A DNA stretch of 64,000 nucleotides from Octopus vulgaris (taxonomy: Eukaryota): NCBI GenBank assembly GCA_951406725.2, contig OX597828.1, forward strand, positions 72,478,001 through 72,542,000, read 5' to 3'. Below, piece by piece: positions 33,293 to 46,413 of the stretch. The notes beneath the pieces were generated by a model that saw only the letters and a list, made by a program, of their open reading frames with translations, was not told where the DNA came from and made no database searches. A program made the translations under genes and the position numbers. Within the stretch, counting starts at the first letter, position 1, and each line of letters begins with the position of its first letter.

Positions 33293-33363
<71 letters not shown>

Positions 33364-33364
33364 A

Positions 33365-33820
33365 TAAATATTAGGGAATGAATCCAAAATTACAGGGATA
33401 AATCAGATTTTTGTTTTTTGTTTTTTTGTTTTTTGCTTGTTGTTTTTTGGTTTTTGTACATTTTTAAATATGAGAACTTTTATAATAGGTTTTTATATTC
33501 AATTGTTTATAGGGTTTATTTTAGATTATTTTAGATTATATATTGATTATATATAGATTATATATAGATTATATATAGATTATATTTTATTTTTTTATAT
33601 TCTTTCATTGATAATTTTATTATTTTATTATTTTAAATTATTTTAAATTATATTTTAAAATATTGATATTTTTAGATCGAAAATCCACCTGAAGATTGTC
33701 GGTAGCAGACATGAAACATTTGTAGTGGCGGTTTATTTAATTTATATTAAAATTTTATGTATTGATTAAGTCTTTCCTTGTTTGGTTTTAAAATAGTGGT
33801 TTTGTCTCGAATTATATTAT
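33365..33820 (+). mobile_element. PLE-like family X copy with hammerhead
   Basis: The left end is the inverted family X terminus (compare 690-730) and the right end matches 580-655. Flanked by (TA)n. Confidence 0.6.
33685..33728 (+). ncRNA. Minimal type I hammerhead ribozyme
   Basis: CCAC CTGAAGA t TGTC ggtagca GACA t GAAA CA tt TG TA GTGG. The core is intact, stem I is 4 bp and stem II is 4 bp. The GUA cleavage site falls after 33724. Confidence 0.75.
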
Positions 33821-33838
33821 ATATATATATATATATAA

Positions 33839-34416
33839 AATTGAGGGTAAAATTAATTAATTATTAATCAATTTCACCAAGTGTTCAGTATGCAAAGGGA
33901 CCATTTAAGGCGAATTCAAATTATTACATTATATAAAAGGGCTTAGTAAAATAAATTACTTCGCCGCATACTGAACTCATTAGAAATAGCAGCTAAAAAC
34001 TTTTTAAAGCTATTTCTAATACTTAAAGAAATCTCTCTCATATATAGCGTTTGCTTAATTCAACTCACAAAAGTTTGGGGTAAGGACATTAAAAATCAAA
34101 TGCTAAGGTTATTTGAGTACGTACGTTTCAAGATTAGTCAAAGCAACATTTCTCTCTTCAGCTCATAAATTCCTTGGTTTGGATTTGGAAACACTGAAAG
34201 TAAGAACTTACCCTTTCGAAGATCCGCTCTCAACTACCAGTGCCAACGAATCCAAATAAGCAAGTGAATCATTTCTGCTCTCCCTTTCCACCAGCATGGG
34301 TTAAAATCATCAAACGCTATGCTTATTTCGGTAAAATCCGAAGCATTAATTAGAGGGAGATTAATTATAATTTCAACAATTGAGGGTAAAATTAATTAAT
34401 TATTAATCAATTTCAC
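33839..34416 (-). mobile_element. 539-bp non-coding retrozyme-like unit with 39-bp terminal direct repeat
   Basis: aattgagggtaaaattaattaattattaatcaatttcac occurs at 33839-33877 and 34378-34416. The unit has an internal hammerhead, no ORF in the track, and (TA)n flanks. Confidence 0.7.
34114..34165 (-). ncRNA. Minimal type I hammerhead ribozyme
   Basis: Minus strand: TGAG CTGAAGA GAGA aatgttgctttgactaa TCTT GAAA CGTACG TA CTCA. Intact core, palindromic stem III, GUA site. Confidence 0.8.
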
Positions 34417-34421
34417 ATATA

Positions 34422-34469
<48 letters not shown>

Positions 34470-34474
<5 letters not shown>

Positions 34475-34680
34475 CACGTTGCTCCAGTCCACTCAGCTGG
34501 CAAAAATGAGTTGTACTTGTATTTCAAAGGGTCAGCCTTGTCACTCTCTGTGTCACGCTGATTATCCCCGAGAACTACGTTAAGGGTACACGTGTCTGTG
34601 GAATGCACGTTAATTTCATGAGCAAGCTGTTCCGTTGATCGTATCAGCTGGGACCCTCGTCGTCGTAACCGGCGGAGTCT
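34470..34680 (+). mobile_element. SINE family C (Meta-like), 5' truncated
   Basis: Matches 38943-39168. Confidence 0.8.
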
Positions 34681-44273: not shown

Positions 44274-46413
44274 TACTCTCTACTACCATTGACACTGACT
44301 GACAGTATTTATAACTACCAACACATACCACTCGTCTCGTGGGAGGGGTGTCCCAAAAATTACTATTATCCCCATAACATCTCTCCTTTTAAGTTTTCCT
44401 TTTTTTTTTCTTAGGGAATATAATTTTATTTCTTTTAATAGCTATAATTTTTACATTACCCCATCTCCCATTTTTGAGATTTTTCTTTCGTTTTTTTTAT
44501 ACAATTACAAATTTAATATTTTTTTCGTTTGGCATCCACTTCCAGGAACTCCGTAATTTTCTTTTTCTTACGCTTTTGCGTCTGGATTCAATTATTCGTA
44601 GTGGCGTTGGTACTTGAAAAGTATGATATAACCATTCCATTGGTTCTTCCATTCTCTTGGGTTCGCTCTCAACGAATGTATATCAAGTATGATAATCATG
44701 CCATCTTCCCAATTTTGATTTCCGTTCTTATATGCCCTAACAAATATCTTTTCACCAGTTTTGAAATCTCTTGCTGTATTTTCTCTTCCAATTTTTCTTT
44801 TCTTGCCAGGCAGCAAGTTGTCGAAGACTGTTGTTATTTTCCTTGCAAACATTAACTCCGCTGGTGACATGTCTGCTAGTGAGGTTGGTTTTGGTGTCAC
44901 GCGGTATACTTTTAAGAATTGTTGTAGAGTTACCTCATCTGTGACTTCCTTATTTGACTTTCTTAGGGCTCTCTTGAACGTATCAACAAAGCGTTCTGCT
45001 TGTCCGTCAGATCTGGGATCGTATGGCGCTGTGGTTACATGTTCTACAGCGAATGTTTTACAAAACTTTTTAAACTCGAAAGACACAAATTGCTTTCCAT
45101 TGTCAGGCAATGTTGGTTGAGAAGGTTGGATTTTTGCCCTTATAAATTTCTCGCCATTTGTCGAACTGCATTTTTAAACTTATATTTTCAATTTACACAT
45201 TTACAAATTTCTTCTTTGTTATATTACTAATTTCTTTCAACAAAATCTTGTTTATTCTGTTTTCTTTATTCCAAAGTTTTGTCATCTTGGTTCTACAGTG
45301 CTCTTTTCAGTGTCAAATTTCTCCACAGCGGAAACATTCCGCTTTCTTAAATGGGCAGTTTTTTCTCCGGTGTAGAACTCCACATGCAAAATATAGTTTT
45401 GTTTCCTGATGCTTGTCCTGTTCGTACTATATTTTAGTACACACTTGATTTCTATTCTTCGCACTTGGGAGCAATTTTTATGTTCAATTTTCTGTGTCGT
45501 GTCTTAAATTTACTCTTCTTTCACACTCTTCTAACTTCTTGTAAGGTTCCCGCCTGGTTTTGTTCCACCTTGGCGAGAATTCTTGTTCTTCTGCTTTTTT
45601 TTCTGCAGTTAGTCCCTGAGCAAATATCAGGCATTTGAACATATCTGACGTTGACTCGTCCGGTTTGAACTTTTTACATCCTCTGTTATCTCTACCAGCA
45701 TATGTGATGTAGTCCTCCACCTTGTTGCTCTTTTCTAGGTTCAAACCTTTCCAGCCTGTATTGAACGACGAGCTTTTATCGCTAAAAGGTTTATGCAGTA
45801 TGTCAATTGTAATTTTCAAGTTTATGTCAGAAGGTTTTTTTCGGGAGTACGTAATTGTTGTAACGCACTCTTTATCAAAGATTTGTTCGTATTTTCTATA
45901 GCAAGCCTCGAGGGTAACTCCTTCATCTGGATCATACCTAAACTCTGTTATTGAGTTTTAAACATAATCTGTGGAGAACTTTCTTTTAGCATTTTCTGAC
46001 CACTCACTATTCGTTAATTGCAGCATTTGACGCTGTAATAGTAATCGTTGTTGTTGTTGCTGCTTCTGCTGTCGTTCTTTCAGTTGTTGTTGTTGCTGTT
46101 TTTGCAACTCGAGCAAACCGGTCAATAAATCTTCTTCCACAATTTTACGATTTGGTATACCCTAAAATTCGCAGAAAAAACTTTTGTGAGCTTCATAACC
46201 CCTTGTGAGTTTGTTAATTCCTCGTCGCTACTGTTCTAATCCGCTGTCGGACTGTTGTAGCGCCCACTGCCGAATAGCAGTATAGTAAGTTAGACAAGTA
46301 AGACCTCCACTATCTAATCCGTACTCTCTACTACCACTGACACTGACTGGCAATATTTATAACTACTAGCGCATACCAGTCGTCATTGTCCCTATAAAAT
46401 TATCCCTGTAACA
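44274..46413 (-). mobile_element. Internally deleted Gypsy/Ty3 LTR retrotransposon
   Basis: The 5' LTR (46413-46232, TG...CA) is followed by PBS-like TAGCGACGAGG. The PPT AAAAGGAGAGA precedes a truncated 3' LTR at 44379-44274. Gag remnants at 45120-46140 are joined to integrase, with PR/RT/RH not seen. Confidence 0.85.
44592..45110 (-). pseudogene. Retroviral-type integrase core fragment
   Basis: DNGKQFVSFEFKKFC...HVTTAPYDPRSDGQAERFVDTFKRAL...YRVTP...SPAELMFARKI. Confidence 0.92.

Follow-up and report, generated by a model that had tools for sequence, protein, structure and literature searches.

The closest described systems are the non-LTR retrozymes of animals and the Penelope-like elements (PLEs). 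In the available text of Cervera & de la Pena 2020 (PMC7229834), PLEs are proposed to mobilise retrozymes and circles to be the templates of reverse transcription (RT), and Li, Clavereau & Pollet 2026 (bioRxiv 10.64898/2026.07.22.740005) propose PLE mobilisation together with local tandem growth and leave the mechanism to be elucidated. For the PLEs themselves, insertions with partial tandems, a 5' copy in inverted orientation and, often at one end only, a tail are described in the available portions of Craig et al. 2021 (PMC8557442). The anole PLE Poseidon PAc, as presented in the accessible sections of Frangieh et al. 2024 (PMC11167929), cuts and extends both target strands in vitro, starting RT at two sites inside the RNA whose spacing equals the PLE tail, and a dimer is predicted. 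More-than-unit copying of PLE circles was suggested already in 2014 (PMC4209133, available excerpt). The retrozyme as a kind and the idea of copying round PLE circles are thus known, and both the movement of retrozymes and the origin of tandem, inverted and tailed PLE insertions are stated as open in these papers.

The insertion described here lies in a 64,000-nt stretch of the Octopus vulgaris genome, the window, where it occupies positions 33839..34416 on the minus strand as a single arm of 578 nt, or 1.07 units. A full unit (33878..34416, minus strand) is followed by a 39-nt overshoot into a second round (33839..33877, minus strand), which holds hairpin H3 and copies the 39 nt with which the inserted unit begins (34378..34416, minus strand). 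The resulting direct repeat, reported in an initial annotation of this DNA, is exact at a spacing of 539, and 200 base shuffles of the region gave no exact repeat of more than 13 nt. The unit length of 539 nt given there is true of the window copy, whereas the family unit, as seen in sister copies, measures 545 nt; relative to an observed sister unit, the window copy has six one-base deletions and, in addition, two substitutions, and part of these differences may come from errors in the assembly. The RNA-3' end of the insertion coincides with site A (33839) and the 5' end is truncated at 34416 (minus strand), from which the q numbering used below starts and runs along the hammerhead strand. 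The unit contains about 33% GC over 492 aligned bases, lacks an LTR pair and is ORF-less as annotated, its longest stop-to-stop frame reaching 72 aa. The insertion sits between a left (TA)n target tract (33816..33838), which doubles as the flank of a neighbouring Hydra-type insertion, and a right one (34417..34472); these flanks are (TA)n as first described but, owing to single interruptions, not pure. No target-site duplication (TSD) is discernible within (TA)n. A TSD or a fixed PLE tail was considered as the source of the 39-nt repeat and rejected, the terminal pair being found in no other copy examined. Since RNA-3' ends are fixed at two sites across the family and only 5' ends vary, the redundancy is particular to the window copy, and it is likely incidental, copying having stopped after 1.07 rounds. 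The right neighbour between (TA)n tracts (34473-34680) has a relative in another locus (L088) and is therefore, judged by sequence, another dispersed repeat. Frames at window 44592-45957 (minus strand) look by eye, in the ORF list, like an LTR-retrotransposon integrase and gag.

A minimal type I hammerhead motif occupies 34114..34165 on the minus strand. Read from 34165 to 34114, its elements are stem I (UGAG/CUCA), CUGAAGA, stem II, GAAA and the GUA triplet; stem I has 4 bp, stem II is interrupted and closed by a G-U pair in the window copy, and stem III consists of 2 bp with a GUAC loop. The initial annotation called this mid-unit ribozyme intact, which holds for the complete core but overstates a motif that is minimal and short-stemmed. 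Cleavage is predicted between 34118 and 34117, which places the new 5' end at 34117 on the minus strand, as the annotation had it. The isolated motif folds poorly (z +1.25; monomer fold -1.0 kcal/mol), and the hammerhead is predicted to be weak as a monomer. Rfam, in gathering and E-value modes, detects no hammerhead and no other real family in the unit, and the hammerhead pattern returns one motif only, on the minus strand. Across the family, the core is intact in 274 of the 284 units that cover it. The stem III strand (34119..34126, minus strand) is a perfect 8-nt palindrome with an inter-copy duplex of -9.8 kcal/mol, and the palindrome is longer in the older subfamily. Modelling predicts that this palindrome pairs between two copies to form a double hammerhead, and such a dimeric arrangement is described for PLE hammerheads (PMC4209133, available excerpt).

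Both hairpins named in the initial annotation are present, namely H1 (33980..34019), which is kept with compensatory changes between subfamilies (helix 15), and H2 (33883..33976), whose arms at 33883-33893 and 33966-33976 enclose site B. The whole minus strand is far better folded than shuffled sequences (z -7.8 as a linear molecule), and the unit as a circle gives z -6.4. In the older subfamily, the hammerhead strand alone folds well (z -4.0 versus -1.0), and fold quality in both subfamilies is good for the hammerhead strand only, which agrees with the strand that the ends, pointing outward, imply. A long rod with a hammerhead branch and hairpins H1-H3 is kept across 17 monomers from the subfamilies, with pairing retained in 98.4% of cells and two-sided changes in 16 of 126 predicted pairs, where slid controls show 1-4. 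The same related sequences served to derive the structure and the two or three subfamilies represent few independent events, so that the modelled covariation supports, rather than proves, RNA-level selection on structure.

The insertion is a copy of a young, non-coding, hammerhead-bearing repeat family. In the 2.8-Gb genome, many copies are 95-99% identical and lie mostly in head-to-tail arrays with a period of ~545 bp, as seen in the best 40 of 1,086 candidates; tandem multimers, which the initial annotation had proposed looking for, thus exist. An exact hammerhead pattern has 253 matches genome-wide (control, 0), and a 14-nt site-A end motif has 4,268 (control, 4), the latter including internal units, the older subfamily and passenger copies, with a minority of the matches inspected. 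The older subfamily has a 560-nt unit and 75-80% identity. Ends were analysed in 125 loci, 40 of them best-scoring and 85 taken from hammerhead-pattern lists, a choice by score or pattern that favours long arrays; 121 of the 125 contained hits, yielding 126 insertions of at least 100 nt. No ORF is attached to a copy in any of the 125 loci, and multi-unit arms run on into a further copy of the 545-nt unit. One array of at least 13 identical units (L067:1454-8406) lies between two assembly gaps and may be longer, and it was left out of the variant and arm-length counts. Three copies within 110 kb on C24 (L061, L137 and L138) share the same 5' end and the same non-TA flank and, on this sequence evidence, likely reflect segmental duplication. 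No RNA data set is recorded as carrying the unit. Contigs from four runs presumed to be RNA cover it, and two contigs bridge the unit junction, as tandem DNA or tandem transcripts would too, so that these contigs are not counted as evidence. The terms 'ribozyme', 'hammerhead' and 'retrozyme' are each absent from an Octopus vulgaris repeat annotation, and the family is undescribed in the literature searched, although repeat libraries or supplements may carry it under another name.

The outer RNA-3' ends of these insertions fall at two sites, with 196 of 210 located at A or B. Site A (34366..34378, minus strand, about q39-51) accounts for 102 of the 210 ends and site B, in the loop of H2 (33914..33935, minus strand, about q482-505), for 94; in the window copy these sequences are internal. 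The two sites lie ~100 nt apart with hairpins H2 and H3 between them, and the outer ends are nearly always joined to (TA)n. Eighty-three of the 126 insertions are two-armed and inverted, their arms pointing apart, while 41 are one-armed and 2 complex. Both ends could be typed as A or B in 73 of the 83 two-armed insertions, and all 73 combine one A with one B, none being A+A or B+B; in the remaining 10, one end lies elsewhere. In the older subfamilies, where both ends are typable in 15 of 62 loci, 14 of the 15 are A+B, the lone A+A case being L286. The two start sites leave a tail of about 100 nt at one end only. The 5' ends are spread round the unit, so that the circular permutation of start points, which the initial annotation had proposed testing, applies to the 5' ends but not to the RNA-3' ends, which are fixed at two sites.

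The inner junctions of the two-armed insertions show an overlap of 1-5 nt in 39 of 83 cases, and the lengths of the two arms do not correlate (rho 0.004, n = 72). All 83 junction pairs are distinct, which indicates that none was inherited from a parent. In 18 of the 83, the two arms meet at unit positions that lie within 15 nt of each other, against 5.2 expected by chance and a maximum of 16 in 20,000 permutations, and 5 of these 18 have arms that differ by whole units. Such same-position junctions would arise through cDNA fold-back or, alternatively, if a single break in a template shared by the two RTs made both of them run off.

Arms longer than one unit make up 54 of 100 A arms and 42 of 93 B arms in this sample, which is biased to long arrays; the longest reaches 5,330 nt, or 9.8 units, with a roughly constant drop per unit under the same bias. 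Only 5 of 206 5' ends fall in a 12-nt interval round the cleavage site, where about 4.5 are expected, and this lack of a pile-up, together with the high proportion of intact hammerheads, makes a cleaved linear monomer unlikely as the template. Among 159 segments from the first 40 loci, units of the same arm diverge by 0.14%, units of the two opposite arms by 0.37% and units of different loci by 2.2%. Seventeen locus-private substitutions are fixed in all covering units, 8 of them across both arms. The haplogroup of the window copy was listed and retrieved in full (48 hammerheads in 15 loci); within it, private variants mark all covering units of L034, of L038 and of L039, and none of these three haplotypes was found at a longer locus of this assembly. 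The L034 variant occurs in all 7 of its segments and in alternate units of L036, so that the two are not linear copies of each other. Such haplotype uniformity is what is expected from copying round one monomer (or dimer) circle. Mixed arrays also occur, with a period of 2 in L036, 3 in L063 and 4 in L128 and a block pattern in L138, and they count against a pure monomer circle, which would not give them. In addition, the second units of the two arms of L053 have a concordant variant, and L049 has a duplicated 5' end.

The 8.3-unit arm of L128 (L128:2126-6634) alternates core-mutated and intact hammerheads two by two, a pattern that would reflect a tetramer circle, block duplication or an assembly artefact. 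An 84%-identical subfamily array (L092:1398-7688) has two arms of different haplotype and carries a B end and the locus's own right flank inside both arms at equal distance from the priming unit; the presence of its own flank there means that DNA-level or read-through events occur too. Array homogeneity could be inflated by assembly polishing, and parent arrays are possibly missing from this assembly. RNA editing was rejected as the source of the private variants, the spectra (17 fixed, 83 single-unit) being small and without A>G skew. Modified-base misreading at three-state sites was likewise set aside, as it is indistinguishable from homopolymer or methylation-related assembly error.

The genome also contains PLEs of a kind that could supply the missing enzymes. 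An intact 709-aa PLE carries RWK, DKT, CxCX5C, CxxC and CxH, the Hydra-clade hallmarks listed in the available portion of Craig et al. 2021 (PMC8557442). Copies of its family are 97-100% identical, lie in (TA)n and extend over more than one round; across 30 loci, they show two ends 63 nt apart, one of each in all 10 loci in which both ends are visible. This one-each end geometry, common to the retrozyme and the Hydra-clade PLE, makes the retrozyme footprint a PLE footprint. Three Hydra-type families were seen in the genome, one of which was checked for the one-each end rule. The young Hydra-clade family (L102:1009-3135, L097-L126) has many intact 709-aa frames and two-armed insertions, and the Hydra clade has so far been described from few molluscan families. 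A search for helper ends in four PLE families, three Hydra-type and one Neptune-like, found no ends homologous to the unit, the only hits being a weak 19/21 match at E 0.14 and one passenger piece.

Further PLE-related sequences occur in and beyond the window. The left neighbour (33354..33815, plus strand) is a separate element, a short two-armed remnant of an autonomous Hydra-clade PLE family, and contains its own minimal hammerhead motif (33685-33729, plus strand); identical copies exist elsewhere, the longer of the family's copies code for an RT-endonuclease that contains an asparagine-rich insert, and the retrozyme is inserted into the (TA)n flank of this remnant. Minimal hammerhead-like motifs whose stem I is short also lie at window 41626 and 47443 (minus strand) and are probably ends of other PLE families. 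A second young family (L299-L313), which we take to be Neptune-like, has frames of up to 1,312 aa with a C-terminal GIY-YIG domain; its 3' UTR contains a hammerhead-like motif, and its copies end at two positions in (TA)n. A sublineage of a second Hydra-type family (L235:4538-4750, L237-L266) spreads a short two-armed retrozyme fixed in its 3' UTR, which is microsatellite-like and, in other copies of the family, free of the passenger. A retrozyme-PLE link at L235 was considered and rejected on that account, the retrozyme there being nested as a passenger that other copies of this Hydra family lack.

We interpret the family as a 545-nt non-LTR retrozyme mobilised in trans by a PLE, probably through a Hydra-clade RT/GIY-YIG protein and probably from a circular RNA template, and assign this reading a probability of roughly 0.6. 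Of its parts, PLE-type mobilisation is very probable and a circular template reasonably so. The retrozyme reading of the initial annotation agrees with the tandem, non-coding, low-GC units, each with a type I hammerhead and without an LTR pair, and its proposal that a circular or multimeric RNA was reverse-transcribed through slightly more than one round fits the family data, including the ~545-bp tandems. In this scheme, tandem copies would be transcribed, two hammerheads would pair via the palindromic stem III and then cleave, and the monomer would be ligated into a circle. A helper protein would bind the conserved H1-H2-H3 hairpin block and cut both strands of a (TA)n tract, whereupon one DNA end would prime cDNA at site A and the other end at site B; the RTs would each travel round the template until drop-off, and the two cDNA ends would be joined by microhomology. 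A single surviving arm would give a copy of the window type, in which priming at A and 1.07 rounds would produce the 39-nt repeat. Tentatively, a Penelope-type protein dimer may sit on one RNA circle, its RT domains parked at A and B and rolling bidirectionally, each domain being assigned to one end of the (TA)n double-strand cut and the templates being monomer and sometimes oligomer circles. If this is true, one bidirectional rolling-circle TPRT would yield the PLE tail as well as the partial tandems and inverted arm.

The circle could be dispensed with if the same PLE machinery, primed at A and B, copied an uncleaved linear multimeric transcript of existing arrays, the arrays being lengthened or homogenised later at the DNA level by unequal crossover or conversion. 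Unprocessed RNA is the main template of the anole PLE, for which cleavage is dispensable (PMC11167929, accessible sections), local tandem amplification is proposed by Li et al. 2026, and the periodic or block variants of L036, L063, L128 and L138, the concordant second-unit variant of L053, the own-flank junctions of L092 and the duplicated 5' end of L049 all suit such an origin. It nevertheless appears unlikely, because inner junctions are shared in 0 of 83 cases, complex insertions number only 2 of 126 though arms often exceed one unit, and multimers in the near-identical cohort carry private variants in every unit while a longer parent is absent from the assembly; moreover, L034 and L036 are not mutual linear copies. 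The haplotype patterns speak more for a monomer bottleneck at insertion than for satellite growth afterwards. A single priming event is harder still to sustain, whether as self-priming of a folded-back cDNA that makes the inverted arm and is then resolved at the other site, or as copying of a cleaved linear monomer with precise end-to-end jumps. Self-priming has been proposed for head-to-head PLE inversions (PMC3846280, available excerpt) and would account for the 18 same-position junctions, but the other 65 of 83 are not of this kind, the arm lengths show no correlation, fold-back itself does not forbid A+A or B+B, and a shared template break met by both RTs gives the same junction excess. 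End-to-end jumps should leave scars at the cleavage site, yet 274 of 284 hammerheads are intact.

The unit could also be the terminal piece (pLTR) of a long coding PLE left by 5' truncation, the alternative raised in the initial annotation. The left neighbour at 33354-33815 is exactly such a fragment, only a minority of the 4,268 site-A motif matches was inspected, and many frog retrozymes have pLTR homology (Li et al. 2026). The insertion geometry is indeed that of a PLE, but no examined copy is attached to a coding element. The annotation's own check, whether all copies are fixed-end fragments of a coding PLE, returned 0 of 125 loci in which a copy continues into an ORF. Hydra-like fragments occur in 9 of the 125 loci, and the two closest same-strand cases are separated from the retrozyme by a microsatellite. 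Moreover, arms longer than one unit pass into another copy of the same unit, and the Hydra sublineage holds its short retrozyme piece only as a 3' UTR passenger. A truncated coding element is accordingly very improbable, and trans-mobilisation of a non-coding retrozyme remains the preferred reading.

What appears new here is the family itself, the strict one-A-one-B end count and the per-insertion uniformity of haplotypes, none of the three having been found described in the literature searched. Because the class is already known, the value of these observations is mechanistic rather than categorical. The family is small, young and numerous and thereby forms a natural assay of the insertion mechanism, its population footprint constituting unusually direct evidence on retrozyme movement. 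In vitro work can also draw on it for an RNA of 545 nt with two mapped sites and for candidate helper proteins.

Compared with known systems, the family resembles the animal non-LTR retrozymes in its non-coding, low-GC head-to-tail units, which range from monomers to multimers and each carry a type I hammerhead, and in the mobilisation by PLE RT from circles proposed for both. Its unit of 545-560 nt exceeds the 170-400 nt given for retrozymes in the available text of the 2020 paper (PMC7229834) but falls within the 51-972 bp of the 2026 preprint (10.64898/2026.07.22.740005). The hammerhead is minimal here and canonical in animal non-LTR retrozymes, and for this family circular RNA is a prediction. 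Two-armed inverted insertions with fixed A/B ends were not found described for retrozymes in the available text of these two sources (PMC7229834, 10.64898/2026.07.22.740005), and the word 'inverted' has 0 occurrences in that of Cervera & de la Pena 2020 (PMC7229834). Two other classes were considered and rejected: plant LTR retrozymes, which have a type III hammerhead in LTRs and a 4-bp TSD, in contrast to the type I motif, missing LTR pair and indiscernible TSD seen here, and viroid-like or delta-like RNA replicons, which have ribozymes in both polarities rather than one motif on the minus strand only.

The likeness extends to the EN+ Hydra-clade PLEs as described in the available portions of Craig et al. 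2021 (PMC8557442), which share the partial tandems, the inverted 5'-truncated arm, the one-end tail, the (TA)n targets (a Hydra/Naiad bias) and a hammerhead upstream of the ends. Unlike these elements, the retrozyme has no ORF for an RT carrying a GIY-YIG endonuclease at its C-terminus; its A-B spacing is ~100 nt, versus 30-40 in Hydra-clade PLEs according to the same portions (PMC8557442) and 63 nt in the local Hydra family, and its ends lack sequence homology to those of the four PLE families checked. In being a non-coding PLE parasite with multicopy head-to-tail insertions, it resembles MRC1 of Chlamys; as far as the available portions go, however, Chlamys non-autonomous elements such as MRC1 have 3' sequence in common with their helpers, and a canonical hammerhead is missing from most Chlamys elements (PMC8557442). 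Finally, as with Poseidon PAc in the accessible sections (PMC11167929), two RT start sites are used whose spacing gives the tail. Start sites are alike on both strands for Poseidon PAc in vitro, whereas here there is one of each (73 of 73 and 14 of 15), a strict one-A-one-B rule that is common to the retrozyme and the intact Hydra-clade element of the same genome.
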